A DNA stretch of 64,000 nt from Candidatus Shapirobacteria bacterium (GTDB lineage: Bacteria > Patescibacteriota > Microgenomatia > UM-FILTER-40-11). The stretch spans positions 178,511-242,510 of the forward strand of contig JAGVBK010000004.1 in assembly GCA_020059745.1 (NCBI GenBank), read 5' to 3'. Numbering within the stretch: the stretch's first letter is position 1; the number at the start of each line of letters is the position of its first letter. The notes beneath the pieces are model-generated. The model saw only the letters and a list, made by a program, of their open reading frames with translations. It was not told the origin of the DNA and did not search any database. The translations under genes were made by a program, and so were the position numbers. Shown here in pieces: positions 16,411 to 63,942 of this stretch.

Positions 16411-17439
16411 TTAGGATTTAGAGTTTTGAGTTTTGAATTTTGACTTTAGGCGCAGGACTTTCCAACGGAGGATATCGCCAAGATTATAAATTTTATAAAG
16501 TAAGGGATTTATGACAAGGTCGTAAGTTCCCAAAAACTCGACAAGCTCTGGAGAAAAGCCTTCTTTAAAGCGGTGGAAGCCATAGTAAGGATGCGAGGGA
16601 GAAGGATTTGGTTCAATGTCGCCCCAAAGGTCAAAGCTTTTGCAGTCTAGTTTTTTTCCAAACCGCATTGATTCCCACATAAGAAGGGTCGGTGCCATAA
16701 GCTCTCTTTGTTCCCGGGTTGAAGCGCCGTAGGGATAATATAAAACCCTATTAAAGCAAAAAAGAAGAAAAGCGGCCAAGGTCTTTTCTTTGTGTTTGGC
16801 CAGCAAGAGATGAGAAATGCCGGCCTTACTTAAGATTTCCCACTGTTTTTGATGATATTTTCTGTCATGAGCGTAAAAACCCTGGCGACTAGTTGTCTCA
16901 AAAAGAAGGTCAAGATAATCTTTAAAAGCTTCTTTTGAATTATTCTCCACTACTTTTACCCCGTGTTTTTGGGCAAGCTTAATGTTGTAGCGGGTTTTAG
17001 GCTTAAAACTAGCTAAAAGTTCTTCTTCGCTTTTCTCAAGATTAATAATTGAGGTGAATTTTGTAAAAAGAGGCTTTCCCTTTTTTAGCCCCATTTTAAA
17101 AAGCGCTTCCTTCTCTCTTGGATCATTTTTTCGGTTTGGCTCAATTTTTACAAAAACAGCCTTGTTTTTTTCCCCGATTTTTCTTAGATAAACTATTACC
17201 GCCTTGTTTAGAAGATCACTTTTAGGAAGGTAGCCGATAGTTAACGGGAGTTTAGGAATTTTATGGAAAGTGACCTGGTACACACTCGTGAGTTTTCCTT
17301 TTTCTTCTTCTCCAAGCCTGACTACCCGGTGCCCTTGTTTTTCTCTGAATTCTCCCCATTCCCAAGATTGAAGCGGGTGAACAGCCAGACGGTTAAAGTC
17401 GTTTTTGTCTTTTTCTGTAATTTCAATTACTTTGGCCAT
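16411..17439 (-). CDS. FemAB-family peptidoglycan interpeptide-bridge aminoacyltransferase (paralog 2)
   Basis: The 342-aa product has LMAPTLLMWESMRFGKKLDCKSFDLWGDIEPN...HPYYGFHRFKEGF and is paralogous to the downstream gene. Confidence 0.7.
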   Translation of the reverse strand: MAKVIEITEKDKNDFNRLAVHPLQSWEWGEFREKQGHRVVRLGEEEKGKLTSVYQVTFHKIPKLPLTIGYLPKSDLLNKAVIVYLRKIGEKNKAVFVKIEPNRKNDPREKEALFKMGLKKGKPLFTKFTSIINLEKSEEELLASFKPKTRYNIKLAQKHGVKVVENNSKEAFKDYLDLLFETTSRQGFYAHDRKYHQKQWEILSKAGISHLLLAKHKEKTLAAFLLFCFNRVLYYPYGASTREQRELMAPTLLMWESMRFGKKLDCKSFDLWGDIEPNPSPSHPYYGFHRFKEGFSPELVEFLGTYDLVINPLLYKIYNLGDILRWKVLRLKSKFKTQNSKS

Positions 17440-17639: not shown

Positions 17640-19466
17640 TTAGCAGCTTTGAAATTCGTTGAGTCTTTGTAAAAAGTCTTCAGGAATATCAAGGATAAAT
17701 CTTGAGATTTGGTTGGCAGTTCTTTGTCCGAAAAAAAGCCTTTTTCTGGCGTAAATTAAGAAAAGATTTTCTTTTGCTCTGGTGATGCCCACATAGCAAA
17801 GCCTTCTTTCTTCCTCAAGCTCGCTGTTATCAAGAAGGCTTCTTGAATGAGGGAACAGGCCTTCTTCCATGCCAATCATAAAAACAACCGGAAACTCTAG
17901 CCCCTTGGCCGCATGCAAGGTCATTAAGGTAACTGCTTCTCCTTTTTTGTTCTTGGCTTTTTCAGAAAGGTATTCTTCTTCAACCAAGGCCACATTTTCT
18001 AAAAAGTCATTTATTTCCGGAAACTGAGTGGCAACAGAGCGAAGCTCTTTTATGTTTTCAAGCCTCGATAAATCCTCCTCGATTTCAGGATTATAAAGCT
18101 CAAGATAAGAGCTAACCTGTAAAACTTCTTCAAGAAGTTCAAGGGTTTTCCTATTTATAAAATTTTGGTCACCTTCAAAGCGGTTTTCTCTCCAGGTCAT
18201 AAATTTTTGCAATTTTCCCTTACCCAGTTTTTCCGCTCTTTTTAAGGAAACAAGGTCCTTTGGGTTTACAAGAAGCCTGAGATAGGAAAGCACATCTTTA
18301 ATTTCTTTTCTTTGGTAAAACCTGGTGCCGCCAACAAGTAAGTAAGGAATACCGGAATGTAAAAACATTTCTTCTAAAATTCTTGACTGAGCGTTTGTCC
18401 GGTAAAGAACCACAAAATCAGAAAGCTTATATTCTTTCAACAAAGCCTTTATTTTTTCTACCACAAAACTGGCTTCATTAAGTTCGCTTTCTGCTTCAAA
18501 AAGACAAATTTTTTCGCCCTTTTTGTTTTCTGTCCAAAGCTTAAGAATGGGGTGTGAAGAGTTCTTAGAAATAACAGAATAAGCGACATCAAGAATTATC
18601 TGTGTTGAGCGGTAATTTTGCTCCAGGTTTATGACTTTTATTTCCGGGAAATCTCTTTTTAAATTCAGCAAATTTCTGAAGTTTGCCCCCCGCCAGCCAT
18701 AAATACTTTGGGAAGCATCGCCAACCACGGTCAGGTTTCGGTAGCGGCCGGAAAGGAGCTTGGTAAGCACATACTGGGCGTGGTTTGTGTCCTGGTATTC
18801 GTCCACTAAAACATATTGATACTGATTTTGGTATTTTCCAAGTGTTTCGGGAAACTTTTTAAAAATATCAACGGTTTTAAAAATTAGGTCATCAAAATCA
18901 AGAGCAGAATTTTCCCTTAAAAGCCTTTGATATTCAAGGTAAATTTGTGCTACCCCTTTTTGCCAAGGAGTGCGGGCATATTGGGGGTATTCAAGTTCTG
19001 AGATAAGCTCATTTTTAGCTTGGGAAATTGTATTAAGCACTGATGAAGGCTTGTAGTCTTTAACTGAAAAACGAAGCTTGCTTATAATTTCCTTAGCTGC
19101 TTCTACCTGATCTGTTTCATCATAAATTAAAAAGTTACGCGAAAATCCCAAAAGCTCCCCTTCTTTTCTTAAAAGCTTGGCGCAAAAAGAATGAAAAGTA
19201 CCGGCATAAGGAATTTCTTTCTTTTTTTCAGCATTTTTTATTAGGTTTTCAATTCTTTCTTTCATTTCTCCGGCAGCTTTGTTGGTAAAAGTAAGAAGAA
19301 GAATATTTTCTGAAAGAATTTGCTTTTCTTTAACAAGATAAGCTGCCCGGTGGGTTAGGGCCCGGGTTTTGCCGCTACCGGCTCCGGCTAAAATAAGCAA
19401 AGGACCGTTTCCAAAGGAAACCGCCCGTTGTTGAGAGGAATTCAAGTTTGCTAAAATATCTTCCAT
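17640..19466 (-). CDS. pcrA: ATP-dependent DNA helicase PcrA/UvrD (compact, 608 aa)
   Basis: QQRAVSFGNGPLLILAGAGSGKTRALTHR, DEYQDTNHAQY, VVGDASQSIYGWRGA, LHAAKGLEFPVVF, YVGITRAK. Confidence 0.85.
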   Translation of the reverse strand: MEDILANLNSSQQRAVSFGNGPLLILAGAGSGKTRALTHRAAYLVKEKQILSENILLLTFTNKAAGEMKERIENLIKNAEKKKEIPYAGTFHSFCAKLLRKEGELLGFSRNFLIYDETDQVEAAKEIISKLRFSVKDYKPSSVLNTISQAKNELISELEYPQYARTPWQKGVAQIYLEYQRLLRENSALDFDDLIFKTVDIFKKFPETLGKYQNQYQYVLVDEYQDTNHAQYVLTKLLSGRYRNLTVVGDASQSIYGWRGANFRNLLNLKRDFPEIKVINLEQNYRSTQIILDVAYSVISKNSSHPILKLWTENKKGEKICLFEAESELNEASFVVEKIKALLKEYKLSDFVVLYRTNAQSRILEEMFLHSGIPYLLVGGTRFYQRKEIKDVLSYLRLLVNPKDLVSLKRAEKLGKGKLQKFMTWRENRFEGDQNFINRKTLELLEEVLQVSSYLELYNPEIEEDLSRLENIKELRSVATQFPEINDFLENVALVEEEYLSEKAKNKKGEAVTLMTLHAAKGLEFPVVFMIGMEEGLFPHSRSLLDNSELEEERRLCYVGITRAKENLFLIYARKRLFFGQRTANQISRFILDIPEDFLQRLNEFQSC

Positions 19467-20406
19467 GGTAAAAAAACTCCTGCCTTATTTTTTTGGGGTA
19501 CTCTTGATTTTACTATTTTCCGGAGGTTTTTTGTGGGGTTATTATATCAAAAAAAGCTATTTTAAGAAGCTGCCCGAGAAAGAGCCGGGAAGAACAAACT
19601 TTCTTCTTTTGGGGGTTAATGATTCGCAATCAGAAGTAGCTGACCTTACAGATACAATAATTTTTCTTTCAGTTGATCCGGTCGCCAAAAAAGCCTACCT
19701 TGTTTCAATCCCCAGAGATTTATGGGTACCGGAAATGCAAGCAAAGATTAACACAGCCTATCATTACGGCGGTTTTGATTTAGCCAGAAAATCAGTTGAG
19801 GATATTTTAGGCCAAAAGATTGATCGGGTAGTGGTTTTAGGCTTTGACGGTTTTGTGGAAGCCGTGGATATAATCGGTGGTGTTGAAGTTGAGGTACTTA
19901 AAAGCTTTGATGACTATAAATACCCAATTGCCGGCAAAGAAAAAGATCTCTGCAACGGAGACCCTTCGTACAGGTGCCGTTATGAGCACATCCATTTTGA
20001 CGCCGGCAGACAAGAAATGAACGGCACAACTGCACTGAAATTTGTAAGAAGCAGAAACGCAGAAGGAGAAGAAGGTACGGATTTTGCCCGCTCTCTAAGG
20101 CAGCAGCAGTTAATTAAGGCGGTAAAAGAAAAACTGCTAACTAAAGAGGTAATGTTTTCGCCTGAAAAAATTAGCGGCTTAATAGGTGTTTTTAAAAAGG
20201 TAACTAAGTCTGACATTGATCCCTCAGAATACGGAAGTTTGCTTGTTCTTTTTTCGAAAATTGACTGGGACAGCATGAAAACAACCTCCTTAGGAGAAGA
20301 TCTTATATTTCATCCAGCAAACCATAGTTCAAAACAATGGGTTATGGTAACCAGGACAGGAGATTGGCAACAAACCCGCGATTTTATTAAGGACTTTTTA
20401 AAATAA
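19465..20406 (+). CDS. LytR-CpsA-Psr (LCP) family cell-wall polymer phosphotransferase
   Basis: An N-terminal TM anchor is followed by the LCP core RTNFLLLGVNDSQ...TDTIIFLSVDPVAKKAYLVSIPRDLWV. Confidence 0.75.
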   Translation: MVKKLLPYFFGVLLILLFSGGFLWGYYIKKSYFKKLPEKEPGRTNFLLLGVNDSQSEVADLTDTIIFLSVDPVAKKAYLVSIPRDLWVPEMQAKINTAYHYGGFDLARKSVEDILGQKIDRVVVLGFDGFVEAVDIIGGVEVEVLKSFDDYKYPIAGKEKDLCNGDPSYRCRYEHIHFDAGRQEMNGTTALKFVRSRNAEGEEGTDFARSLRQQQLIKAVKEKLLTKEVMFSPEKISGLIGVFKKVTKSDIDPSEYGSLLVLFSKIDWDSMKTTSLGEDLIFHPANHSSKQWVMVTRTGDWQQTRDFIKDFLK

Positions 20407-31053: not shown

Positions 31054-32439
31054 TTAGAAAAAAACCAGAGCAAGACTAACAAGTATAATTAACACTCCGG
31101 CTCCCAAGAAAATTTTTGAAGGCGAATCAAATCCCGAATCAGGAAGTTCTTCGGCTTGGGTAGGAGAAATACTAGTTTCAACTTCCTTAACGGTTGGCGA
31201 TAACTTTGTGGTAGGTTGAAGTGTGGGAGAAGATTTTACTGTTGGCGAAGGGCTTGACGCTAAAGCAGTAGTGGGGGTTATTGTTAGAGAGGCTGTCTCT
31301 CCTGAAGGCGTGGCGGTAAAAGAAGGCAGATCGCTTTCTCCTGTTGCCAAGACGACAAAACTTCTGCTTACCTTTTTAATCACGCCGTTTTCAAGGTAGG
31401 AAACAATAATGCGGTGTTCTCCTGGTTCAAGAGGGGTTTTTGGAGACCATTTCCACTCTCCGTTGCTGCCAACCTTGACGCTTGAGGTAATTTTTTGGTT
31501 TGATTCTACTTCAATGGTTAGTTCTTGTCCTTCCGGTCCCTTGCCGATAAATTCCGGAATAATGGTATTTAAATTTTCATTCTCAGAAGGGGAAAGTATA
31601 ATTAGTTCTTCTTGAGTAAAAGGTACTGAGGTGGGAGCCTGAAAACCGCTTTGGTTTATGGTTGTTTTGGTTTCTGAACTAGTTTGGGGAGTTGCTCCTT
31701 CCTCAAGGAAGTTGTGATTCTTACCAATAGTTATGTCTGGAGCAGGGTTATCACTTGCAGTAGTGAGAGTTGCCGTGGCTGTTTCCATGCCTTTTTTAAC
31801 AGTGATTTCTATGATTTGAGCATTTCTGTCATAGTTGGAAACACTTTGTAGGTCAAGTGTCCTTGCCGTGGCAAGGGGAATCATCCAGTGCCCATTTTTA
31901 TCAGTAAGAGCTGCTTGTTCAACTGCATTTGCCATTGAAAGATAAACCAGAGCATCTGGCAAAGGACTGCCGATAGGGTCAAGTATCCTGCCTTGGGCAA
32001 TATCATTGTCCTCTGGAATTGAAGGCAAGGCGGTAGTTACCTCATAAGGCTTTCCTGAATTATCAAAAGCTCTTCCGTTGGAAACCACTTTGAAATAATA
32101 TTTTGTTTGCGGTTTAAGGCCGTCAACGATGACAAAATGAACTCGGGATTTAATAAAAGTGCTTTCAGTGTCTCTTATGTCTTTTTTAATTTCTCCTGTT
32201 TCCTTTGTTTCGCCGACTGTCAGGCTGCCTGAAGTTTCTTGTGAAGTTGCCCAGGAAACAACAAAAGACGACTGACCAACATTAGTTATTTTAAGCTGAA
32301 GAGGAGTATCCTCGGGAGAAGCTTTGGTGGAAAAATTCTGAACTCTATTAATTGCAAAAATTCCCGCCACCAGCCCAAGGATAAGAATAGCTAGTCCGAT
32401 TGGAATCGGAAGGTGCTTCGGTTGCAAGTATTTTTTCAT
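31054..32439 (-). CDS. cell-surface multi-domain protein (Fn3-like, carboxypeptidase-regulatory-like and Ig-like domains) with an S/T/P-rich stalk and a C-terminal LPDSG-plus-hydrophobic anchor (putative sortase substrate)
   Basis: An N-terminal signal/anchor is followed by FVVSWATS...TKYYFKVVSNG (Fn3), DALVYLS...TDKNGHWMIPL (CarboxypepD_reg-like), and a Ser/Thr/Pro-rich region. The ORF ends ...ELPDSGFDSPSKIFLGAGVLIILVSLALVFF. Confidence 0.6.
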   Translation of the reverse strand: MKKYLQPKHLPIPIGLAILILGLVAGIFAINRVQNFSTKASPEDTPLQLKITNVGQSSFVVSWATSQETSGSLTVGETKETGEIKKDIRDTESTFIKSRVHFVIVDGLKPQTKYYFKVVSNGRAFDNSGKPYEVTTALPSIPEDNDIAQGRILDPIGSPLPDALVYLSMANAVEQAALTDKNGHWMIPLATARTLDLQSVSNYDRNAQIIEITVKKGMETATATLTTASDNPAPDITIGKNHNFLEEGATPQTSSETKTTINQSGFQAPTSVPFTQEELIILSPSENENLNTIIPEFIGKGPEGQELTIEVESNQKITSSVKVGSNGEWKWSPKTPLEPGEHRIIVSYLENGVIKKVSRSFVVLATGESDLPSFTATPSGETASLTITPTTALASSPSPTVKSSPTLQPTTKLSPTVKEVETSISPTQAEELPDSGFDSPSKIFLGAGVLIILVSLALVFF

Positions 32440-32472
32440 TAATTTCTTTAGGCAATTTAGTCTAAATCTTGG

Positions 32473-32670
32473 TTAGTGATATCTTTTCGCAAGCTCCTCG
32501 AACACTTTTTCATCCAAGTCGGGGTTTAAAACTTTAATTTCCTCTTGGGTTAAAATCGGTTTTTCAGTTTTTTTAGCGGCGAAATGAACGCTCAGATAAA
32601 TCCAAAGAAAAGCAATTGTCAGGCTTAAAATTGATATAAGTAAAATTGCTTGGCTGTAATTTTTTTTCAT
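32473..32670 (-). CDS. hypothetical small single-TM protein (65 aa)
   Basis: One TM segment (AILLISILSLTIAFLWIYL). It is tightly packed between the PilO-like gene and the surface-protein gene. Confidence 0.35.
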   Translation of the reverse strand: MKKNYSQAILLISILSLTIAFLWIYLSVHFAAKKTEKPILTQEEIKVLNPDLDEKVFEELAKRYH

Positions 32671-32671
32671 T

Positions 32672-33316
32672 TTAGCTTGATTGTTTGTTTTGGTCCTCTA
32701 CAAAGGTTGCTTCTCCGGTTATTATCAGCATCAAAACTGGCTCTTCTTTGTTTTTTGATTCTGAAAAGCTTGTTTCTTTTATTTTAACCATTCTTCTTGA
32801 TGCTTCCATGAATCCTAAAAAATCCTTTAGTTGCTGATATTGACCGATGACATTAATCGAAAAGTTAAAAGAGCTTGTTTGGGTTTCTTTGCCTTTAACC
32901 GCTTTTGGCTGGCTGCCTACTTTTTCAAAATTGATTGTTCTAAGCTCAACCCCAGAGGAGCTGGCAGCAGTTTCAAAAAATAAAGCCAGCTGAGGAAATT
33001 CGTTTTGTTTAGGCAAGGCTTCGTCTAAAAGAGCCATATATTCAGCATTTTTAGCGTATTCTTCCTGGGCTTTTACGATGGCATCAATTTTTTGCTGAAG
33101 TTTTTCGCTTGCTTCTCTTTTTTCCTTAATCTCTTTTCTCAAGCTGGTAATGGTGACCAAGGTAGGTTTAATAGCCATGATTAGAAAAAAAGCCGCAGTT
33201 GAAATAGAAAGTGAAAGCCAGATAAAAGATTTAATTTGTTCTGTCTGATAAAGTCTTTGGACATCAGAAAAGTATCTTTTGTAAGGAATGGCGTTATTTT
33301 TAAATTTTAAGTTCAT
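32672..33316 (-). CDS. type IV pilus assembly protein PilO-like
   Basis: A short cytoplasmic N-terminus, one TM segment, a coiled coil, then LDEALPKQNEFPQLALFFETAASSSGVELRTINFE, which matches the PilO periplasmic domain pattern. Confidence 0.5.
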   Translation of the reverse strand: MNLKFKNNAIPYKRYFSDVQRLYQTEQIKSFIWLSLSISTAAFFLIMAIKPTLVTITSLRKEIKEKREASEKLQQKIDAIVKAQEEYAKNAEYMALLDEALPKQNEFPQLALFFETAASSSGVELRTINFEKVGSQPKAVKGKETQTSSFNFSINVIGQYQQLKDFLGFMEASRRMVKIKETSFSESKNKEEPVLMLIITGEATFVEDQNKQSS

Positions 33317-33888
33317 TGGCTAGATAAGCTGGTTTTGCTTTGTTTTGCTTCTTTTATTGTGGCAGTAATATTAAAACTTATTCCCGGCAGACCTTCTTTT
33401 CGCGATGAAACTTCGTCAAGTGAAACTTCTGAAATATTTGGGAGGCTTACTAACCCTGTCATAAAATATTTAAGCCCGCTTTCAGTAAAAGAGTAGCCTG
33501 TGATTTTCAGCTCATCATCAGCAACTGCAATTCTATTTAAAGTAACTTCAACAGGAAGAAGCTTGCTGACCTCAACAATCCAAACTGAGGGTTTTTTTTC
33601 TTGAGCAAGAAGCGTTTTTACCAAATTGGTTCTTTCCTGTATCTGGCGGAAATTATCCTCGAAACTGGTAGCCGAGGCAACAATCGCTTTTTTCTGTTTT
33701 ATTTCGTCAAAAAGGTTTGCCAGTTGGGTGTCGAAGTAAAATCTTGACAAAAAAGCGCAAATTACCACAAATTCCGTTAAAACAACGATCCAGCGGCCAA
33801 CAGAGACAGCCCAGCCTACAAGTTTGCCGGTTGGGGAATAGGCAAAATCATCCTTGGGGAGAAGATTTATTTTGTCAGCAGAAGACAT
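33313..33888 (-). CDS. type IV pilus assembly protein PilN-like
   Basis: The N-terminal INLLP motif (KINLLPKDDF, the PilM-binding signature of PilN) is followed by a single TM segment and a coiled coil. Its 4-nt overlap with the downstream PilO-like gene indicates coupling. Confidence 0.55.
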   Translation of the reverse strand: MSSADKINLLPKDDFAYSPTGKLVGWAVSVGRWIVVLTEFVVICAFLSRFYFDTQLANLFDEIKQKKAIVASATSFEDNFRQIQERTNLVKTLLAQEKKPSVWIVEVSKLLPVEVTLNRIAVADDELKITGYSFTESGLKYFMTGLVSLPNISEVSLDEVSSRKEGLPGISFNITATIKEAKQSKTSLSSQ

Positions 33889-55261: not shown

Positions 55262-55894
55262 ATGAGAACAGTAGGAGAAATACTTTCCGAAAAAAGAAAA
55301 GAGCTAAACCTCAGTCTTGAAGATATTGAGAAAGAAACAAAAATCAGGCAAAAGTATCTTGAGGCAATTGAAAAAAACAATTTTCAGCAGATAGAGGAAA
55401 GCACCATTGTTAAAGGATTTATCAGGAATTATGCTCTTTCCTTGGGATTATCGGCTGAAAATGTTCTCGCTGTTTTCAGAAGGGATTTCAGGGAAAACGA
55501 AAAAGGTCAGGTTATACCGCGGGGGATGGTTGAACCCTTGGGCGAAAAAAGCTTTTGCTGGACTCCGAAAATGACCTTTATTTTTTTTGTTTCTTTTTTA
55601 ATCATCGGCTTTACCTACTTTTTTGTCAGGCAATATGTTGGTTTTTCTTCTGCTCCCGAACTTGAAGTTTTTTCTCCGGTTGAAGGCCAGGTATTTGAGG
55701 AAAAAATCGAAGTTAGAGGGAAGACTCATCCTGAAGCTTCGGTTAAGATTGACGGTACTTTAATCTCTATTTCGGAAGACGGCAGCTTTAAAGAAGAAGT
55801 TACTCTTCCCCGAGGAGAAAATTTTGTGACTGTTGAGGCAGTAAACAGGCAAGGTAAAAAAAGAACTTTTAATATAAAAGTAAAAGTGGAGTAA
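55262..55894 (+). CDS. RodZ-like cytoskeleton protein (XRE-type HTH, single TM, C-terminal extracytoplasmic domain)
   Basis: N-terminal HTH (TVGEILSEKRKELNLSLEDIEKETKIRQKYLEAIE), a TM segment (MTFIFFVSFLIIGFTYFF), and a beta-rich C-terminal domain. Confidence 0.5.
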   Translation: MRTVGEILSEKRKELNLSLEDIEKETKIRQKYLEAIEKNNFQQIEESTIVKGFIRNYALSLGLSAENVLAVFRRDFRENEKGQVIPRGMVEPLGEKSFCWTPKMTFIFFVSFLIIGFTYFFVRQYVGFSSAPELEVFSPVEGQVFEEKIEVRGKTHPEASVKIDGTLISISEDGSFKEEVTLPRGENFVTVEAVNRQGKKRTFNIKVKVE

Positions 55895-55949
55895 CCTTGA
55901 CAAGAAGTCTTTTTAAACCTTAAACTAAGTTATATAAAATAAACTGCCC

Positions 55950-56243
55950 ATGCAAATACCTTACCTTAACCAAGCTCTTCTTTTTTTAGTTGTTACGGTT
56001 TTGACCACCTTGCTTGCAATTGCCGGAGTTCAAGTGATTCACATTTTAAAAGAATTTAGGCAAACGGCAGCTAAACTTAACAAAATTGTTGACGACTGCC
56101 AGCTCATTTCTTCCTCTGTAGCTAAGCCAGTAGCCGGGCTTTCAGGTTTTATTACCGGTTTAAAAAGCGGCAGTGATTTTATTAGCTTTTTTTTGAAAAA
56201 CAAAACTCAAAAAACAAGCCTTAAGGAGCCAAAAGATGAATGA
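55950..56243 (+). CDS. hypothetical membrane protein (97 aa)
   Basis: An N-terminal TM segment followed by an amphipathic region. It overlaps the start of the next gene. Confidence 0.4.
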   Translation: MQIPYLNQALLFLVVTVLTTLLAIAGVQVIHILKEFRQTAAKLNKIVDDCQLISSSVAKPVAGLSGFITGLKSGSDFISFFLKNKTQKTSLKEPKDE

Positions 56244-56685
56244 CGAAAACAATGAAAGCAATAACGGTTTTTGGATTGGTCTGATCGTCGGCGGCATATT
56301 AGGAGCAGGCGCTTCTTACCTTCTTGGTATCGAGGACAAGGAAGAAGCCAAAAAGAAACTTCTTCAAAAAGGCAAGTGGCTTCTTGAAAATTTTGAGGAG
56401 ATTGGTGAAAAAGTTGAAGAAAAAGGAGAGGAAATAAAAGAAAAAGCAACTGAGCAAGTGGCGGAAGTTAAGAAAGAAGTTGAAGAAAAGGTTAAAGATT
56501 TGCCGGAAATTGCCCAAGAAGCAGTCGAAAATGTTCAGAAAGCAGCGCAAGAAGCAGTTGAAAACATTGTTAACGCGGTTGAAGAAAACGAGGAAGTCTT
56601 GGTTGAAAAACCGGTTAAAGAAAAGAAAGCTTCCAGCGGAAAAAGGTTTTTCTTTAAAAAAGGAGCACCGCTGACAAAAAAATAA
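56236..56685 (+). CDS. YtxH/DUF948-like membrane-anchored coiled-coil protein
   Basis: Small-xxx-small TM segment (GFWIGLIVGGILGAGASYLL) followed by a charged helical repeat (AQEAVENVQKAAQEAVENIVNAVEE). Confidence 0.45.
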   Translation: MNDENNESNNGFWIGLIVGGILGAGASYLLGIEDKEEAKKKLLQKGKWLLENFEEIGEKVEEKGEEIKEKATEQVAEVKKEVEEKVKDLPEIAQEAVENVQKAAQEAVENIVNAVEENEEVLVEKPVKEKKASSGKRFFFKKGAPLTKK

Positions 56686-56689: not shown

Positions 56690-57397
56690 ATGGAAAAAAA
56701 AGAAGCAGACGAAATCCAATCTCAGGAGCAAGTTCAACCAGCACAAACAGAACCAGCTCCTAATTTATCCGGAGAAAAATCTATTTTAAAAATCGTTGTT
56801 ATATTGGCTGTTGCCATCCTGTTAATTGCGACGGGAACAGTATTGGGAATGCAAATAGGGAAAAAGCAAATTGCTCCCAAGGAAATAATTTCCGACAAAA
56901 ATACCCCTACGGCTACGGTTTCCGAACCAACTATTACTCCAGTTGTTGATGAAACAACTAACTGGAAAACCTATTCAGATAATATTGCAAAATTTGAGAT
57001 TAAATATCCGGCTGGTTGGTCTTACTCCGTGAAGACAAAAACAAAAGTGTCTTATGGTGTAAATTCAAATGAACCAATTTATTATGGAAATTTATCTTTT
57101 TCCGGTCCAGAAGGACAAATTGAGCTTGTCTTTGGCGATGGTTTTGGCGGGGCGACATGTCAAGTGGCGAAGGGTGCTGGAGCACGGTTGGCCAATATTA
57201 AAATCGGTGATTACAATATTCCCTTATGTAATTACAAACAAGGAGAAATCATTTACTATGACAGTCCTTTTGGTGATGCTGGCGGTCCGCGAATTGGCAA
57301 TACCTCTTATAATTTTTCTTTTTCTTATCGAGAGTCTTCTCCTGAGTCTAAAGATTTAATTTTGGAAATTCTTTCCACTTTAAAGTTTGCCGACTAA
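56690..57397 (+). CDS. hypothetical membrane-anchored extracytoplasmic protein
   Basis: An N-terminal acidic region, one TM segment, then a beta-rich domain of about 150 aa. No recognised motif. Confidence 0.4.
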   Translation: MEKKEADEIQSQEQVQPAQTEPAPNLSGEKSILKIVVILAVAILLIATGTVLGMQIGKKQIAPKEIISDKNTPTATVSEPTITPVVDETTNWKTYSDNIAKFEIKYPAGWSYSVKTKTKVSYGVNSNEPIYYGNLSFSGPEGQIELVFGDGFGGATCQVAKGAGARLANIKIGDYNIPLCNYKQGEIIYYDSPFGDAGGPRIGNTSYNFSFSYRESSPESKDLILEILSTLKFAD

Positions 57398-57463: not shown

Positions 57464-59218
57464 ATGACCGCCAAGGAGCTTCGAGAAAAATTCATTAATT
57501 TTTTTACAGAAAGGGAACATAAAGTTATTCCTTCTTCATCGCTTATTCCCGAAAACGACCCGACCACGCTTTTTATTTCTGCCGGCATGCACCCTCTTGT
57601 TCCCTATCTTTTAGGAGAACCCCATCCCCAGGGAAGGCGGCTTTGCAGTGTGCAAAAATGTTTAAGAACCGGAGACATTGAGGCTGTTGGCGATACCTAT
57701 CATCACACTTTTTTTGAAATGCTTGGAAACTGGTCATTAGGCGATTACTGGAAAGAGACAATGATTCCCTTAAGTTTTGAATTTTTAACTAAGGTGCTTA
57801 AAATTCCTTCGGAAAAAATATCAGTCACTTGTTTTGCCGGAGATAAAGACGCTCCTAAAGACGAAGAAACTGCCAAGCTTTGGGAAAAGGCAGGAATTCC
57901 AAGGGAAAGGATTTTCTTTTTAGGCAAAGAAGACAACTGGTGGGGTCCGGCCGGAAAAACAGGGCCTTGCGGTCCGGATACGGAAATGTTTTATGATACC
58001 GGCAAACCCGACTGCGGGCCAGATTGCCAACCAGGGTGTTCTTGTGGAAAGTATCTTGAAATATGGAATGATGTTTTCATGCAATACTACAAAACACCTG
58101 AAGAAGATTTTAAGACTTTGGAGCAAAAAAATATTGATACGGGAATGGGGGTGGAAAGAACAACTGCGGTTTTAAATGGTTTAGACGACGATTACAAAAC
58201 TGAGCTTTTTTTACCAATTATTAAGGAAATTGAGAAAATCTCCGAGAAAAGCTACGAAAAAGAAGAAAACAAAAAGCCAATGCGTATCATTGCTGACCAC
58301 TTAAAAGCATCTGTTTTTATCTTGGCTGAAGGAATTACTCCTTCCAATACTGAACAAGGCTATGTCTTAAGAAGGCTTATAAGAAGGGCAGTCCGTTTTG
58401 GTAGAATGCTTGAAATTCACGGCTCTTTTAGCGGTTTGGTGGCAGAGTCGGTTATCAGGACAATGGGAGATACCTATCCTGAGATTGTTTCCCAAAGCGA
58501 AAGAATTTACAGGGAACTAGGGCTTGAAGAAGAAAGGTTTTTAAAAACCATTCAGCGGGGGACAAAAGAGTTTGAAAAGCTCTCCCAAAAAGGAAAGATC
58601 ACTGGTAAAGAAGCCTTTTTTCTTTATGAAACTTATGGTTTTCCTTTTGAGCTAACAGTTGAAATGGCTAAAGAAAAAGAAATTGAAATTAATGAAGAGG
58701 AGTTTATAAAAGCCCAAGAAGAGCATCAGCGAAAGTCAAGAATCGGTGCGGAAAAGAAGTTTGCCGGCGGTTTGGCTGACCAATCAGAACAAGTAACTAA
58801 ATACCACACAGCCACTCATCTTTTGCATGCAGCCTTAAGGAAAGTATTAGGCGAGACAGTGCGCCAAGCCGGTTCTAATATTACGGCCGAAAGAATGAGA
58901 TTTGATTTTACCTATCCTAGCAAAATGACAGATGAGCAAATTAACAAAGTTGAGGATTTAGTTAACCAAAAAATAAAAGAGAATTTGCCTGTGGAATTTA
59001 AGGTTGTTAGTCTTGAGGAAGCAAAAAAAGAAGGGGCAATGGCTTTATTTGAGCAAAAATACCAAGAAAGAGTTAAACTGTATAAAATTGGCGATTTTTC
59101 AAAAGAAGTCTGCGGAGGTCCGCATGTTTCTTTTACAGGTGAGTTAGGAAAGTTTAAAATAATAAAAGAAGAAGCCTCAGGAGCAGGCAAAAGAAGAATT
59201 TATGCAACCCTAAGCTAA
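57464..59218 (+). CDS. alaS: alanine--tRNA ligase (compact; catalytic and editing domains, no C-Ala domain)
   Basis: The N-terminus REKFINFFTEREHKVIPSSSLIPENDPTTLFISAGM...FEMLGNWSLGDYWK and the editing-domain zinc motif HTATHLLHAAL...CGGPHV. 584 aa. Confidence 0.85.
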   Translation: MTAKELREKFINFFTEREHKVIPSSSLIPENDPTTLFISAGMHPLVPYLLGEPHPQGRRLCSVQKCLRTGDIEAVGDTYHHTFFEMLGNWSLGDYWKETMIPLSFEFLTKVLKIPSEKISVTCFAGDKDAPKDEETAKLWEKAGIPRERIFFLGKEDNWWGPAGKTGPCGPDTEMFYDTGKPDCGPDCQPGCSCGKYLEIWNDVFMQYYKTPEEDFKTLEQKNIDTGMGVERTTAVLNGLDDDYKTELFLPIIKEIEKISEKSYEKEENKKPMRIIADHLKASVFILAEGITPSNTEQGYVLRRLIRRAVRFGRMLEIHGSFSGLVAESVIRTMGDTYPEIVSQSERIYRELGLEEERFLKTIQRGTKEFEKLSQKGKITGKEAFFLYETYGFPFELTVEMAKEKEIEINEEEFIKAQEEHQRKSRIGAEKKFAGGLADQSEQVTKYHTATHLLHAALRKVLGETVRQAGSNITAERMRFDFTYPSKMTDEQINKVEDLVNQKIKENLPVEFKVVSLEEAKKEGAMALFEQKYQERVKLYKIGDFSKEVCGGPHVSFTGELGKFKIIKEEASGAGKRRIYATLS

Positions 59219-59221: not shown

Positions 59222-61537
59222 ATGCTGCCCTTAAGTAGTTTACTTGAAAAAATTAACCCGCTTGATAAAAATAACGGTTCTTCTGTGGAATACTACCTCA
59301 GCTTGCTTGTTAATGAAAAAAAGGTAAAAAGCGCGATTTGGTCGGTTGCTAAAAACGGCGAAAAAGACATAGTTTTTGGCAATCCTGAATCATGGGGAAA
59401 CAACAACCCCGAAGAGCTTATTGTTGCCGCCGACGCTTCAATTGCCTCTGCGGTTACCAAGCTTGCCAGTCTTGAAGGAAAGCAGCCAGGTAAAGTTATT
59501 TTGGGTATTCCCGAAAATTGGGTGCAGGAAAATTCAATTGAACAAAGCAAGCAAGACCTTTTTAGAGAAGTCTGTAAAAAAATGGAATTAAAGCCAGCTG
59601 GCTTTATCGTTACTCCTGAGGCAATTGCCCACTTTCTAAAAAGCGAAGAAGGCGGCTTGCCCAGTTTAATTTTGGTTAATGTCGGCGAAACAGAAATTAC
59701 CGTTTCCCTTATTAGTAAAGGAAAGTTTTTAGGTAGCAAGTTGGTGGGCAGAAGCGACAACCTTGCCCTAGATCTAGAAGAAGGACTTCTTAGGTTTGAT
59801 ATTCAGGACAACCTTCCCAATAGAATTCTTCTTATAAACGACGCTGAAAACCAAAATATTGAAGAAGCCAGGCAAACATTAGTGGCTTACCCCTGGGTTG
59901 GTCCTGAGGGAGAGAAAAAGCTTAAGTTTTTACAACTGCCCAAAGTTGAGGTTGCCGACCCGAATTTTGAAATAAAAGCTGTTGTTTTGGCTGGTTTTAG
60001 GGAAATCAACCCGGAAAGAGCTGAAGAAAAAGTTGAAGTTCAGGCAGAAAAAAAAGTCAATGAAGAGCCTGTCTTTGAAACTACTCCAGAAGAAACTCTT
60101 CATGAAGAAAGTGAAAGCAAACACTTCGAAGAGCAGGAAGAAGATTTTGGTTTTCTAAAAGGTGAAGACATTTTAGCTACCGGGATTTATGTTCCCCAAA
60201 AGGCTGAAGCTGGCAGCGGAGTTGAGGAAAACGGGGAAACAGTTTACACCGCCAGTGAGGTACCGAAAGAAGAAATGAAAAGACCTGAGCCAATACCTAA
60301 GAGAAAAATTAGCTTTAACTTCCTGCCAAAGTTTTCTTTGGCTTTTTCCTGGTTTAAACGGATAAGGCTTCCTCGTTTAAGATTTGATTTAAAATTTGGA
60401 AAACTACCTCTAGTTGTTCTTTTTCTCCCACTCCTTGTTCTTGGTTTTTCCCTTTTTGGTTTTTGGAACTGGGCCAAGGCTGAGGTTAAAATCATTGTTG
60501 AACCGCAAAAAATTGATAAAGAATTTGAATTTACTATTTCAGACGAAATTACCGCAGCTGATTCCGAGGGAATGGTTGTGCCGGCGAGAACCCTGAGCCA
60601 TCAAGTTTCCGGCTCAAAAACAGCGCAAGTAACTGGTAAAAAAACAGTTGGGGACAAAGCCAAAGGAGAAATTATTATCTACAACCGCACTGAGCAGGCA
60701 AAAAGAATTCCCGCCGGCTCCATTCTTAAAGGACCCGGAGGACTTAAGTTTGTAATTGACGAAGAAGTAAATGTGGCTTCAAAAACAGCAGACCTGGCTA
60801 TGGGAGTTGATAAATGGGGAGAGATTAAAACAACGGCAACAGCTGAGGATATCGGTGCGCAATATAACATTGCTTCAGATTCGGTTTTATCCTTTGAAAC
60901 TGTTTCTTCTTCAAGCCTGCTTGTTAAAAACCCCTCTGCTTTTTCCGGAGGCACCAGCAGAGAAATACAGGCAGTATCCAAAACTGATAGGGAAAACCTA
61001 CAGAAAGAATTGCTTTCCGAATTAAGAGAAGTGGCAAAACTGGAAATCACAAACTCTCTTTCGGAAGGAGATTATCTTCTTGAAGATTCCTTTGAACTGG
61101 AAAGCAAAACCGATAGTTTTGACCGTGAGATTGACGAAGAAGCTACCAGTTTATCTCTTGAACAGGAGGCAGAATTTTCTGTTCTTTATATAAAACAAGA
61201 GGACTTTTTATCTCTTGTGGAAGAAGTGCTTAGCAGAGAAGTAAATGAGGGTTACCGCCGTGATTCTTCCTCAAGTAACCAGACCTTTAGTGTGGTTGAT
61301 CCTAAAAAAGGAGTTTATAAAGCCTCGGTGAGAGAAAAGTTTTTGCCCGAGATAAACACCGCGGGAATTCCGTTGCTTCTTAAAAGTAAACCTCTAAAAA
61401 GTGGAGAAAAAATTATTGGTAACATAAATAAAGTAAGCGGGGTTAAAATAAATATTAGCCCCAAACCCTTTTCCTATTTGAAATTCTTCCCTTTTAAGGA
61501 GCAAAATATTAGCGTTTCAATAGAAACACTAGAATAA
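59222..61537 (+). CDS. hypothetical 771-aa protein: N-terminal actin-like ATPase fold (FtsA/PilM-like), central TM segment, acidic linker and a large extracytoplasmic C-terminal domain
   Basis: VILGIPENW...FIVTPEAIAHFL...SLILVNVGETEITVSLISKGKF resembles the phosphate-2 / adenosine motifs of actin-fold proteins. The TM segment is LPLVVLFLPLLVLGFSLFGFWNW. The stop overlaps the sortase start (TAATG). Confidence 0.3.
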   Translation: MLPLSSLLEKINPLDKNNGSSVEYYLSLLVNEKKVKSAIWSVAKNGEKDIVFGNPESWGNNNPEELIVAADASIASAVTKLASLEGKQPGKVILGIPENWVQENSIEQSKQDLFREVCKKMELKPAGFIVTPEAIAHFLKSEEGGLPSLILVNVGETEITVSLISKGKFLGSKLVGRSDNLALDLEEGLLRFDIQDNLPNRILLINDAENQNIEEARQTLVAYPWVGPEGEKKLKFLQLPKVEVADPNFEIKAVVLAGFREINPERAEEKVEVQAEKKVNEEPVFETTPEETLHEESESKHFEEQEEDFGFLKGEDILATGIYVPQKAEAGSGVEENGETVYTASEVPKEEMKRPEPIPKRKISFNFLPKFSLAFSWFKRIRLPRLRFDLKFGKLPLVVLFLPLLVLGFSLFGFWNWAKAEVKIIVEPQKIDKEFEFTISDEITAADSEGMVVPARTLSHQVSGSKTAQVTGKKTVGDKAKGEIIIYNRTEQAKRIPAGSILKGPGGLKFVIDEEVNVASKTADLAMGVDKWGEIKTTATAEDIGAQYNIASDSVLSFETVSSSSLLVKNPSAFSGGTSREIQAVSKTDRENLQKELLSELREVAKLEITNSLSEGDYLLEDSFELESKTDSFDREIDEEATSLSLEQEAEFSVLYIKQEDFLSLVEEVLSREVNEGYRRDSSSSNQTFSVVDPKKGVYKASVREKFLPEINTAGIPLLLKSKPLKSGEKIIGNINKVSGVKINISPKPFSYLKFFPFKEQNISVSIETLE

Positions 61538-62307
61538 TGCTTTACCGTTATGTTAAGAAACAACCACGCTTTAATGTTTTTAGCCCAAAACTTGGAAGTT
61601 CTAGGAAAAGATATTTTGCCGGTTTCCTTTTGGTTGTCGGCATCTTTCTTTTTATAAACGCAGCCTATCCAATAATTTCCTACCAGCTTTTAGTGGCTCC
61701 CCGTTTTTCCGCTTCTTTTGTCAGCCCTTCTTCTGAGGCAGCAATTTCCCATTCTTTCGGGCCTCCTCAAAAAAATGAGTTTTTGAGCTCGGCTCAGGTA
61801 ATTGGCACTGAAATTGATTTGGTAGACTATACCAAGGCGGGCAACTGGTTTAGTGAAGAGAAAATTGAAAAGGAGTTTAGTGTTGAAACCGATAACTCTA
61901 CTTATTTCTTGTCAATTCCCAAGCTGGGGATAGAAAAAGCTGAGGTCAGGGTTGGGGTTGAGGATCTTAAGCAAAGCCTTATTCAGTATCCAGGAACAGC
62001 AGCACCTGGCCGTTATGGCAACACGGTTGTTTTTGGCCATTCGGTTCTGCCTCAGTTTTTTAACCCTAAAAACTACTTAACCATTTTTTCCACTCTTCCG
62101 ACCCTTAAAGTTCAGGATGAGATTATTGTCTACCATAACGAGGTTACCTATCGTTATGTAATTGAAAATATGATTGAAGTTTCTCCAAGCGATATTTCAA
62201 TTCTTGCCCAAAGGTTCGACGATTCGTATCTTACTTTAATTACTTGTGTACCGCCAGGTACTTATTTGCGCCGCTTAATTATCAGAGCCAGGCTGGCAAA
62301 AATTTAA
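61537..62307 (+). CDS. sortase (transpeptidase)
   Basis: An N-terminal TM anchor, catalytic His (VVFGHSV), the TLXTC active site (LTLITCVPPG), and the conserved Arg (RRLIIRARL). Confidence 0.75.
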   Translation: MLYRYVKKQPRFNVFSPKLGSSRKRYFAGFLLVVGIFLFINAAYPIISYQLLVAPRFSASFVSPSSEAAISHSFGPPQKNEFLSSAQVIGTEIDLVDYTKAGNWFSEEKIEKEFSVETDNSTYFLSIPKLGIEKAEVRVGVEDLKQSLIQYPGTAAPGRYGNTVVFGHSVLPQFFNPKNYLTIFSTLPTLKVQDEIIVYHNEVTYRYVIENMIEVSPSDISILAQRFDDSYLTLITCVPPGTYLRRLIIRARLAKI

Positions 62308-62323: not shown

Positions 62324-62716
62324 ATGAAAATATTAGGCATTGATTACGGAAGAAAAAAAATCGGCCTTGCTTTGGCTGATACTTCTTTGGGGGTGGTTGA
62401 GCCTTTGCTGACTTTGCCTTTTTTAGGATTTTTAAAGGAAATCAGCGGGATTGTTTCCCGATATGAATTTAAAAAAATTGTAATTGGCAATCCCGGCGGT
62501 TTAATTGAAAAAGAAATCTTTGAATTTGGAAAAAAAATTAAAAAAGAAACCGGCCTTGAGGTTGACTTTCATGACGAAACCCTAACCACCGTCGATGCTC
62601 AAAAAGTACTTTTACAATCAGGAAAAAAAAGAAAGCAAAGGCAAAAAAAAGAGGATGCAATTGCTGCCGCTCTTATGCTAGAATCATATTTAGAAGGAGG
62701 TGTTAATAATGTTTAA
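62324..62716 (+). CDS. ruvX: Holliday-junction resolvase-like putative pre-16S rRNA nuclease YqgF/RuvX
   Basis: MKILGIDYGRKKIGLALAD...KIVIGNPGG...DETLTTVDAQ. Confidence 0.85.
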   Translation: MKILGIDYGRKKIGLALADTSLGVVEPLLTLPFLGFLKEISGIVSRYEFKKIVIGNPGGLIEKEIFEFGKKIKKETGLEVDFHDETLTTVDAQKVLLQSGKKRKQRQKKEDAIAAALMLESYLEGGVNNV

Positions 62717-62909
62717 AAACATAATTGCTCCCGTTCAGGCTTGGCTTCTTTCCAAGGGGCAATGTGTTGGCTGTGGTGCCCCCCTTTCTAAAGGTAATCA
62801 CACCAAAAGAGAGGACGGGACAGAGAAGATTACCTGCAAATGCGGTAGAATCTTCATATATGACAAAAAAGCCCAGAAATACCGCCGGGCTCTTTTTGAG
62901 GAAGTTTAA
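62709..62909 (+). CDS. small zinc-ribbon protein (66 aa, CxxC...CxC)
   Basis: A strong SD GGAGG sits 8 nt upstream of the ATG at 62709. It has four Cys (CVGCG...CKCG) and a basic C-terminus, and overlaps the ruvX 3' end and the mltG 5' end. Confidence 0.4.
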   Translation: MFKNIIAPVQAWLLSKGQCVGCGAPLSKGNHTKREDGTEKITCKCGRIFIYDKKAQKYRRALFEEV

Positions 62910-63942
62910 GAAAATTACTGATTCTTCTTATAAGGTGAAAAAAATTCCTTTTAATCTTAGCGTGCTTTTTTTTCTTCTTTTATTTGTATTTATTGGCGGA
63001 AAAGTTTGGTGGAAAGAGAGCCTTAAGCCCTTTGACCCCAGCAAGCAAACAAAAATAAGTTTTGTGATTAGGAAAGGCGAGCCAATTTCCTTGGTTGCCA
63101 GCCGGTTAAAAGAGGAAGGATTAATAAAAAGCCCTGTTTTTTTTAAGGTTTATCTTATGATTCAGGGTTTGTCTAAAAAAATCCAAGCTGGCACTTATCA
63201 GCTTTCAGCCTCAATGACACCAATGGAAATCTCGGGATTATTCATAAAAGGAACCAACGACCAATGGGTGACAATTATAGAAGGTTTAAGACAGGAGCAA
63301 ATTGGAGCCCAGCTTATAAAAAGCGGTTTTGCAGTCAACCCTAAAGATTGGCAAGAAAAAGTAATAAGTGAAGGACTTGAGGGTAGAATCTTTCCGGATA
63401 GCTATTTGTTTCCCAAAGATGCTAAGGAGGAAACAATTCTTAAAATCATTGCCAGTAACTTTGAAAAAAAAGTTATAAGTGGGCTTAAAGAGGAAATTGC
63501 CGAAAGCAAACTCAGCTTTGAAGATGCCCTTATCCTTGCTTCAATTGTGGAAAGGGAAGCAAGAACGGAGACTGATAGAAAAATTGTAGCGGGAATTCTT
63601 TTAAAAAGACTTCAAAACAACTGGCCGCTTCAGGTTGATGCCTCGGTACAGTACGCAGTGGCAAGTCAAAGGTGCCGAAACTCATATGATCCAAACTGTG
63701 ACTGGTGGCCAAAAAGCCTGAGCAAAAACGATTTAAAAATAAGCTCTCCTTTTAATTCTTATCTTAATCAGGGTTTGCCGCCAGGACCAATTTGTAATCC
63801 AGGCCTTTCTTCGATTAAGGCTGCTCTTTCTCCCAAGGAAAGCTCGTATTGGTTTTATATCTCAGACCTTGAGGGAAAAATGCATTATGCTAAAACAAGT
63901 GAAGAACATGCCCAAAACATCGGCCGTTATCTTTTAAGGTAA
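62860..63942 (+). CDS. mltG: endolytic murein transglycosylase MltG (YceG family)
   Basis: N-terminal TM segment (IPFNLSVLFFLLLFVFIGG) and the YceG domain with C-terminal GLPPGPICNPGLSSIKAAL. The start is taken at the ATG at 62860, because the ORF-track start at 62725 is a TTG with no N-terminal features. Confidence 0.8.
   Translation: MTKKPRNTAGLFLRKFKKITDSSYKVKKIPFNLSVLFFLLLFVFIGGKVWWKESLKPFDPSKQTKISFVIRKGEPISLVASRLKEEGLIKSPVFFKVYLMIQGLSKKIQAGTYQLSASMTPMEISGLFIKGTNDQWVTIIEGLRQEQIGAQLIKSGFAVNPKDWQEKVISEGLEGRIFPDSYLFPKDAKEETILKIIASNFEKKVISGLKEEIAESKLSFEDALILASIVEREARTETDRKIVAGILLKRLQNNWPLQVDASVQYAVASQRCRNSYDPNCDWWPKSLSKNDLKISSPFNSYLNQGLPPGPICNPGLSSIKAALSPKESSYWFYISDLEGKMHYAKTSEEHAQNIGRYLLR

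Follow-up and report, generated by a model that had tools for sequence, protein, structure and literature searches.

The window, a 64,000-nucleotide (nt) stretch of a contig of a Candidatus Shapirobacteria bacterium (JAGVBK010000004.1, positions 178,511 to 242,510), encodes a bitopic membrane protein of 771 amino acids (aa), here called X, and, directly behind it, a sortase of 256 aa. The two genes form a conserved envelope gene pair, and X is not a pilus gene. X combines a cytoplasmic domain with a predicted actin-like (ASKHA) fold, a disordered linker, a single transmembrane (TM) helix and an extracytoplasmic domain with the predicted fold of the baseplate wedge protein J. These parts are of known kinds (ASKHA scaffold, baseplate-J fold, sortase), and it is their combination and their fixed position that are new; no description of the pair was found in the literature on baseplate J and sortases, on baseplate J and Microgenomates, or on sortases and LPXTG motifs of the Candidate Phyla Radiation (CPR). 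We tentatively propose that X is a non-enzymatic bitopic scaffold of the envelope, and that the sortase encoded behind it is its working partner at the site of wall synthesis.

The gene pair has a fixed place between alaS and ruvX-mltG

The pair and its conserved neighbours were located as follows.
59222..61537, plus strand: gene X, an open reading frame (ORF) of 771 aa, bitopic membrane protein
61537..62307, plus strand: sortase gene, an ORF of 256 aa
61535..61539, plus strand: TAATG stop/start overlap of X and the sortase gene, in the sequence context gaaTAATGctt
57464..59218, plus strand: alaS (Pfam 3.8e-145), the conserved left neighbour, 3 nt upstream of X
62324..62716, plus strand: ruvX, also called yqgF (Pfam 1.6e-27), the conserved right neighbour, separated from the sortase gene by a gap of 16 nt
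62700..62909, plus strand: zinc-ribbon ORF of 69 aa (CxxC...CxC), a member of the cluster that is present in most loci
62725..63942, plus strand: mltG, also called yceG (Pfam YceG 2.3e-72), start uncertain

A first-pass annotation of this DNA had reported the ORF of 771 aa and the sortase gene, joined by the TAATG overlap, between alaS and ruvX-mltG, and both the coordinates and the Pfam assignments of the neighbours agreed with it. It had further assumed that the pair was inserted locally into a conserved neighbourhood, and this was contradicted by the gene order in relatives. The synteny sample comprised 40 CPR-type loci besides the window, with lineages defined as clusters at 95% identity; a search with a 16-sequence alignment contributed 5 genome loci and 31 metagenome loci. 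The next gene after X was this sortase in all 35 loci with downstream DNA, and in 23 of 23 lineages when the window was included. The distance from the stop codon of X to the start codon of the sortase gene was between -4 and +10 nt in 34 of 36 loci, which is tighter than for the other neighbours, and the tight coupling noted at first sight was thus found in every lineage examined. Wherever the sequence extends far enough, alaS lies immediately 5' of X. In nearly all loci of sufficient length, the genes downstream of the sortase gene are ruvX, the zinc-ribbon ORF and mltG, and rpoB-rpoC come next in the two loci that reach this point. Because the order alaS-X-sortase-ruvX-mltG is found lineage-wide, the X-sortase pair is a fixed core feature of Microgenomates and not a local insertion.

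X is 100% identical to the NCBI hypothetical protein C4578_00660 of a Candidatus Microgenomates bacterium. In a set of 5.8 billion proteins, 108 full-length homologues were retrieved, with E values down to 0, and the named sources were all Microgenomates, Shapirobacteria, Curtissbacteria or the Patescibacteria group. A profile of X gave 4377 matches at E <= 1e-30 and 10305 matches at E <= 1e-10 among 1.84 billion cluster representatives. Three loci (L006, L009 and L010) contain the typical Microgenomates cluster and carry public labels of Gammaproteobacteria, Clostridia or Bacillota, which are probably errors of binning or classification.

The base composition of X is the same as that of its flanks. 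Promoter-like and terminator-like sites did not exceed the frequency in shuffled sequences, and the scan was therefore uninformative. The zinc-ribbon ORF shows 68–81% identity across the loci, compared with about 35–55% for the adjoining genes, and no family was assigned to it. The TTG start listed for mltG overlaps this ORF, and the true start is therefore probably located further downstream; homologues of mltG are called at 309–336 aa.

The N-terminal half of X is a minimal actin-like domain

The structure of full-length X was predicted with AlphaFold2 (AF2) from an alignment of 59 sequences. The mean predicted local distance difference test (pLDDT) score was 83.7, and the ordered parts were residues 20–270 and 391–771, with most blocks of residues above 90. 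The domains of the cytoplasmic side and the TM helix were assigned as follows.
59279..60031, plus strand: residues 20–270, predicted minimal and degenerate actin-like (ASKHA) domain of the FtsA/PilM type, cytoplasmic (AF2 fold, Foldseek)
60032..60301, plus strand: residues 271–360, disordered acidic cytoplasmic linker (pLDDT, composition)
60143..60154, plus strand: residues 308–311, short linear motif DFGF within the linker (alignment conservation)
60302..60400, plus strand: residues 361–393, K/R-rich juxtamembrane segment with the sequence RKISFNFLPKFSLAFSWFKRIRLPRLRFDLKFGK (positive-inside signal)
60401..60472, plus strand: residues 394–417, single TM helix (hydropathy; AF2 helix at 395–417)

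Residues 20–270 were predicted to form two halves, each with the order beta-beta-beta-alpha-beta-alpha-beta-alpha, and thus a two-lobed fold of the RNase-H type. Foldseek searches against the PDB placed PilM of P. aeruginosa (5eoy, 5eq6 and 5eou) on top, with E values from 3e-8 to 2e-7, followed by PPX/GppA, MreB3, EutJ, BT_3980, FtsA and ParM, and all of these matches were in the range from 3e-8 to 1e-6. The TM-scores peaked at 0.52, for minimal ASKHA members. Judged from the model, the ASKHA fold can be regarded as secure, but the Foldseek ranking alone is no proof of an origin from PilM. The structure prediction thus bore out the suggestion that the N-terminal part has an actin fold.

The Pfam hidden Markov models (HMMs) PilM_2, FtsA and MreB gave no match even at E <= 1, both with whole X and with residues 1–293; no NCBIfam model of these families matched X, and a direct sequence search of X against the PDB had no match. 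Subdomains 1C and 2B are missing from the model, and a domain of 250 residues, compared with about 350–400, leaves no room for such insertions. The first-pass annotation had also recognized actin-like ATPase motifs, and these turned out to be degenerate. Column counts over the 59 homologues revealed no conserved D or G at the phosphate-1 (DxG) and phosphate-2 (DxGGGT) positions; the NVGETE at the phosphate site of X in the window is one variant of many, and the adenosine site reads RILL-x6-LEE in place of GGGA. Because the positions of the ATP-binding motifs are not conserved across the homologues, the N-terminal domain is considered to be a pseudo-ATPase that would act through protein binding.

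Residues 272–390 were predicted to be disordered, with pLDDT values below 50 over 272–311 and 318–390. The linker is the most acidic part of X, with 25 D/E compared with 12 K/R in residues 271–375. Embedded in it is the conserved DFGF motif, of which F311 is conserved in at least 90% of the 59 sequences; the 16 closest sequences all have G310 and F311, and at least 90% of them have D308 and F309. Residues 376–400 contain 7 K/R and 1 D/E. The TM segment, with a Kyte-Doolittle hydropathy maximum of 2.45, is the sole hydrophobic segment of X. Because the K/R-rich stretch precedes this segment, the N-terminus is assigned to the cytoplasmic side and the C-terminus to the outside. The topology check therefore agreed with the earlier description of one central TM segment and an external C-terminal half.

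The extracytoplasmic domain has the fold of baseplate protein J

Two features were assigned to the C-terminal half.
60473..61534, plus strand: residues 418–771 (354 aa), extracytoplasmic domain with the predicted fold of the baseplate wedge protein J/gp47/gp6/TRI-2 (AF2 and Foldseek)
60650..60964, plus strand: residues 477–581, core of the Baseplate_J barrel including the FSGGTS signature (Pfam PF04865, phrog_6)

This domain had been called a large acidic external domain. It is indeed large, but it is only mildly acidic, and its baseplate-J fold had been overlooked. The fold was indicated by both sequence and structure comparisons. The Pfam family Baseplate_J (PF04865) matched with 24.5 bits when whole X was used and with 26.8 bits when the ectodomain alone was used, against a cut-off of 21.1. 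The PHROG family phrog_6, a baseplate wedge subunit, matched X with 1.3e-7, and a profile of the X family found diffocin TRI-2 (8v3w) in the PDB with an E value of 2e-4. An AF2 model of the ectodomain alone reached a pLDDT of 96.2. Foldseek matched this domain with the PDB structures of phi812, cyanophage A-1(L), diffocin TRI-2, Mu, XM1 and phiCD508, with E values from 2e-6 to 4e-4 and alignments that cover about 350 columns, and with baseplate-J proteins in BFVD from an E value of 7e-7. At E <= 1e-3 there were 17 matches in the PDB and 42 in BFVD, mostly baseplate J/wedge proteins. The barrel core could be superposed on baseplate J proteins with a root-mean-square deviation of 2–4 Å over about 110 residues, while global TM-scores were low (about 0.23) because the arrangement of the domains differs in the ectodomain model. 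In the alignment of homologues the ectodomain is highly conserved.

In spite of the phage-type fold, no further tail or baseplate genes (gp25/W, gpI, spike, sheath, tube) were found in the window or in the 40 related loci, and no relatives of X or of the related protein P0108 described below were found among 2.9 million viral contigs.

Two other assignments were tried and rejected. The C-terminal half of the ectodomain resembles the PilN/PilO-type ferredoxin fold in the order of helices and beta-hairpins, but there was no such match in the PDB, and structures of PilN, PilO, GspL and GspM were absent from the 50 best PDB matches of the ectodomain. X was also considered as a substrate of the sortase, but it lacks a C-terminal hydrophobic anchor and an LPXTG motif, and its FSGGTS is the signature of baseplate J.

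Related arrangements without a sortase in Anaerolineae and in locus L046

The TM segment and the ectodomain are not confined to proteins of the X type. In Anaerolineae (Chloroflexota) a protein of about 500 aa has the same ectodomain, preceded by one TM segment and, before that, a basic juxtamembrane stretch, whereas its N-terminal domain, of about 95 aa, is a different one. The profile of the C-terminal domain of X matched it over the full length with 103–139 bits, whereas the profile of the N-terminal domain gave no match; no family could be assigned to the domain of about 95 aa. The gene for the TM/J-like protein is situated directly upstream of ruvX-mltG in 3 of 3 loci, without a sortase gene, and in one of the three alaS is found two genes further upstream. 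The loci, automatically annotated as 'baseplate J/gp47 family protein', are:
L004 6001-9217
L013 5001-8117
L014 5001-8251

These Anaerolineae genes encode membrane-anchored cellular proteins and are not prophage genes. The comparison showed that the TM/J-like part is older than the X-sortase pair. Because this part adjoins ruvX-mltG in Anaerolineae in the absence of a sortase, the link to the sortase is secondary.

A different arrangement was observed in one further locus.
L046 3799-6569: a stand-alone, divergent FtsA/PilM-family gene and the TM/J-like gene P0108, the former 9 nt upstream of the latter

The gene order in L046 is alaS, a membrane protein of 200 aa, an FtsA/PilM-family protein of 397 aa, P0108, a membrane protein of 150 aa and rpoB-rpoC. 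The lineage has a short AlaRS of the CPR type, and the locus contains neither ruvX nor mltG nor a sortase gene. The protein of 397 aa matched the Pfam families PilM_2 with 42.4 bits (cut-off 27) and FtsA with 32.5 bits (cut-off 31.8), the NCBIfam models pilM and ftsA both matched with 6e-11, and the best matches in the PDB were FtsA proteins.

The profile of the N-terminal domain of X was aligned with this protein by hhalign, and a collinear alignment with a score of 34.5 and an E value of 4e-4 was obtained in local mode only, while the global mode failed. As controls, the nucleotide-binding domain of DnaK from the window scored 10.1, and 30 shuffled sequences scored at most 20.9. The alignment pairs LDLEEGLLRF of X with LDEAETLR, and RILL...YPW...FLHLPKVE with YILL...SNW...HFEQKPAVS. 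It contains gaps of about 100 and about 75 residues at the places of subdomains 1C and 2B. Since a separate FtsA/PilM-family gene is found directly upstream of the J-like gene in L046, the arrangement points to a gene fusion: at the sequence level, a Rosetta-stone pattern is likely, with a separate FtsA/PilM partner in L046 and a fused, stripped-down one in Microgenomates. An analogous relation has been described for PilM and PilN, which together are equivalent to the fused GspL (PMC4471445).

Taken together, the earlier proposal of a PilM/FtsA-type scaffold was supported by the predicted fold, by the relation to the L046 protein and by the topology, but not by HMM matches, the presence of subdomains 1C and 2B or ATP-binding motifs.

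The sortase and a candidate substrate

The gene behind X was verified to encode a bona fide sortase. The protein has an N-terminal TM anchor (residues 26–48) and a catalytic domain (residues 125–253) that matches the Pfam family Sortase (PF04203) with 3.1e-23 and sortases of the PDB at an E value of 1e-10. The catalytic residues His168 (FGHS), Cys237 (TLITC) and Arg246 do not vary among 8 orthologues. All class models of NCBIfam failed; the scores for classes C, E and D were 51.2, 50.6 and 45.0 bits, respectively, against cut-offs of 160–165. The generic model sortase_fam was the only one that was passed (45.8 versus 39.35 bits). Two further conserved regions precede the catalytic domain. Residues 1–120 (61537-61900) include a long conserved pre-catalytic segment in which D97, W104 and F105 are invariant, and the TM anchor ends in a conserved motif of small residues, FINAA|YP, a possible cleavage site for signal peptidase.

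Only one candidate substrate was found within the window.
31054..32439, minus strand: candidate sortase substrate, a fn3/Big_13 surface protein of 461 aa with the C-terminal sequence ...EELPDSG and, after it, a hydrophobic anchor

The hydrophobic tail after the LPDSG motif lacks a basic end, and the match to Gram_pos_anchor was weak (18.6 bits, below the cut-off of 20). In addition, the window encodes two enzymes of the FemAB family, an LCP (LytR-CpsA-Psr) protein and MurJ. Because of these genes, a wall of the Gram-positive type, with an interpeptide bridge as sortase acceptor and with attached glycopolymers, is plausible. The two FemAB-family genes are adjacent, and they and the LCP gene are found at 15449-17439 (minus strand) and 19465-20406 (plus strand).

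X as a possible platform for the sortase

We hypothesized that X and the sortase operate together. In favour of this are the architecture and topology of X, its degenerate ATP motifs, the intact triad of the sortase, the strict gene order and spacing, the arrangements in Anaerolineae and L046, and the wall genes of the window together with the LPDSG protein. The mechanism would be as follows. The actin-fold domain would have been fused on, in the same way as PilM and PilN correspond to GspL, and together with the DFGF motif it may serve as a binding module for a cytoskeletal partner or a division partner. The ectodomain might self-associate to an oligomer, in analogy to wedge proteins. The assembly could hold the co-translated sortase, stabilize or protect it, or position it where new peptidoglycan is made (lipid II, MltG), and surface proteins of the LPxSG type, e.g. 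the one encoded at 31054-32439, would be attached to the wall at that site. A housekeeping sortase under the control of a membrane protein with a linked gene is already known, and this supports the view that X is a partner of the sortase: SafA is a small membrane protein that protects the actinobacterial housekeeping sortase SrtA from signal peptidase (PMC9282373). It has a single TM segment (residues 13–35), its gene is located downstream of the sortase gene, and its exoplasmic FPW motif contacts the sortase (PMC9282373).

Several points weigh against this proposal. The interaction of X with the sortase is a supposition, and the operon also carries the unrelated housekeeping genes alaS and ruvX. 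Because the TM/J-like protein occurs without a sortase in Anaerolineae and in L046, its core function is independent of the sortase. The supposed oligomerization of the ectodomain is an analogy to the phage proteins. The candidate substrate has a sorting motif that varies among its relatives, and since these end in APSSG or YVTGS instead of LPDSG, the substrate assignment is weak. The probability given by hhalign for the N-terminal domain of X and the L046 protein was only 34%, and the arrangement of L046 was found in one species, on two contigs; with a single species and a weak alignment, the gene fusion is rated as likely, not as certain. A sortase platform built on X is accordingly put forward as a possibility that falls short of an established function.

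A possible scaffold for wall growth or division with the sortase as passenger

The sortase may also be a mere passenger of the operon. X would then be a scaffold of wall growth or division, a tether similar to FtsA or RodZ between a partner in the cytoplasm and MltG or nascent peptidoglycan. We consider this, the strongest of the rival readings, somewhat unlikely, yet it explains several observations. The Anaerolineae protein is linked to ruvX-mltG without any sortase, and the neighbourhood of the pair includes ftsK, a RodZ-like HTH_25 gene, a YtxH-family gene and a weakly DUF948-like ORF. For the stand-alone partner in L046, the FtsA and PilM scores are equal, and FtsA proteins are the best PDB matches. 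FtsA is composed of an ASKHA domain, a flexible linker and a membrane anchor, and the layout of X mirrors this. However, in none of the 23 lineages was the sortase gene apart from X, and the start of this gene overlaps the stop codon of X or directly adjoins it. FtsA binds FtsZ through subdomain 2B, which X does not have. The fixed place beside ruvX and alaS may, moreover, reflect the inertia of an operon and not a common function.

No link to pili was found

The first-pass annotation had connected X with pili, because a pil operon in the window had no adjacent PilM. The absence of pilM next to these genes is correct, but the supposed operon contains only pilN-pilO and lies far from X.
33888-32672, minus strand: pilN-pilO, followed by a TM protein of 65 aa and the LPDSG protein, 26 kb from X

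Apart from pilN-pilO, the window contains no pilus genes (pilB, pilC, pilT and pilD are absent), and the remainder is housekeeping; the neighbours of X are alaS, the sortase gene, ruvX and mltG in all loci, and nothing was found that ties X to pili. A pilus-like machine is nevertheless a reading with arguments of its own, in which X would be an alignment protein of the PilM/GspL type that binds the orphan PilN-PilO and is connected to a sortase-anchored structure. PilM is the top structural match of X, and the bitopic ASKHA architecture parallels that of GspL (PMC4471445). PilN of the window retains the PilM-binding motif INLLP, which is near-invariant in 20 relatives, pilM is not adjacent to the pilN-pilO cluster in the window and in two other genomes, and the protein that ends in LPDSG is encoded after pilN-pilO. 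All the same, the reading is improbable. The 1C subdomain of PilM forms half of the groove for the PilN peptide, and X lacks 1C. X has no PilM_2 HMM match, its ectodomain is J-like and not of the PilN/GspL ferredoxin type, and pilN-pilO are 26 kb away in a window without pilB, pilC, pilT or pilD. Furthermore, a complete Microgenomates genome is reported to have pilM within its single main pilus locus and also to encode a sortase (PMC7143001).

The pilN-pilO genes belong to a conserved cluster of their own, comprising pilN, pilO, a small TM protein (65–93 aa) and an anchored fn3/Big_13 protein. It was found in the window at 31054-33888 (minus strand) and in two other loci (L011 7001-9831; L012 7001-9936). 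Downstream of the cluster, an amine oxidase and PMT_2 glycosyltransferases are encoded, three of the latter in the window. Judging from the S/T/P-rich stalk and from the PMT genes, the fn3/Big_13 protein may be O-glycosylated and anchored to the wall.

Improbable readings: a phage-derived module for contact with host cells, or a prophage remnant

Alternatively, the ectodomain could be a domesticated phage baseplate or receptor-binding module with which the epibiotic cell touches its host or adheres to it, and the sortase would then anchor accessory adhesins. The baseplate-J fold is well supported, and the Patescibacteria in culture are episymbionts of other microbes (PMC11623550). Nevertheless, this appears even less probable than a role in a pilus. 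The same ectodomain is conserved in Anaerolineae in a housekeeping context. Anaerolineae are free-living, and baseplate J proteins are structural wedge components and not binders of receptors. There are no other baseplate or tail genes nearby, and conservation as high as that of the ectodomain is not typical of proteins that determine the host range.

That X is a prophage remnant or a spurious ORF, for which only the Baseplate_J and PHROG matches could be quoted, is effectively refuted by thousands of conserved full-length homologues, a fixed chromosomal position among core genes, a base composition that equals that of the flanks and the lack of relatives in 2.9 million viral contigs.

A speculative common envelope machine

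A more far-reaching view is that Anaerolineae and the CPR share a hitherto unrecognized envelope machine. Membrane-anchored cellular copies of the phage baseplate wedge protein would assemble on the outer face of the membrane into an oligomeric platform or ring, which an FtsA/PilM-type actin-fold protein, fused to it in Microgenomates, would drive or position from the inside; in Microgenomates the platform would recruit the sortase, and the anchoring of surface proteins would thereby be coupled to wall synthesis or division. This view is unlikely to be correct and is offered as speculation.

Further genes around the cluster

Upstream of alaS, at 55262-56685 (plus strand), the window encodes ftsK, a RodZ-like protein (HTH_25, TM and Glucodextran_B), a weakly DUF948-like protein of 97 aa and a YtxH-like protein, and this order recurs in many related loci. 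It is followed at 56690-57397 (plus strand) by a gene for a protein of 235 aa with an N-terminal anchor and no family match. Relatives of the latter are found upstream of alaS or downstream of mltG, depending on the locus, and its position around the conserved cluster is therefore mobile.

Significance

Microgenomates, which are ultra-small, are among the largest groups of uncultivated bacteria, and the construction of their envelope is almost unknown. In their genomes the X-sortase pair is no less fixed than alaS or rpoB, and yet X goes by the label 'hypothetical' or the misleading 'baseplate J/gp47 family protein'. The ectodomain of Anaerolineae beside ruvX-mltG shows that automated 'prophage' labels on such genes are wrong, and it points to a cellular use of the baseplate-J fold, which was hitherto known only from contractile injection machines. 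If X is a platform for the sortase, it would be the second kind of sortase-controlling partner after SafA, and also the second actin-fold protein, after GspL, that is fused into a bitopic platform. If the common envelope machine exists, the baseplate-J fold would have a function in the cell that does not involve contractile injection systems.

Comparison with known systems

The architecture of X is most easily compared with GspL/EpsL of type II secretion. In both cases, a cytoplasmic actin-like domain is combined with one TM segment and an external domain in an N-in/C-out topology, and both exist in split and fused forms, i.e. PilM and PilN versus GspL on the one hand, and L046 versus Microgenomates on the other hand. 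In contrast to GspL, the external domain of X is baseplate-J-like and not a ferredoxin fold of the PilN type, the inserted 1C-like domain is missing, and there is no context of GspE, GspM or secretin.

With the PilM/FtsA family (PF11104, PF14450), X has in common the core fold, the residual similarity to the L046 protein and a linker tether like that of FtsA. It differs by the lack of an HMM match, of 1C/2B and of ATP motifs, by the fusion to a TM segment and a large ectodomain, and by a location outside pilus and dcw gene clusters.

The wedge J proteins of phages and tailocins (Mu gp47, P2 gpJ, T4 gp6, TRI-2 CD1371) share with X the predicted fold, the barrel core and the F-x-GG-T/D signature. 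Unlike them, X is membrane-anchored and cellular, and it is fixed among core genes without companion tail genes.

Sortases of classes C, D and E and the sortase of the window agree in the His-Cys-Arg triad, the TLxTC motif and the N-terminal anchor, and the C-terminal TLITCVPPGTYLRRLIIRARL resembles class C. However, the window sortase has no C-terminal TM helix, and it adds the long conserved pre-catalytic segment.

Finally, SafA and X are both membrane proteins whose genes invariably adjoin a sortase gene, but X is much larger, with 771 aa, and is encoded upstream of the sortase gene.

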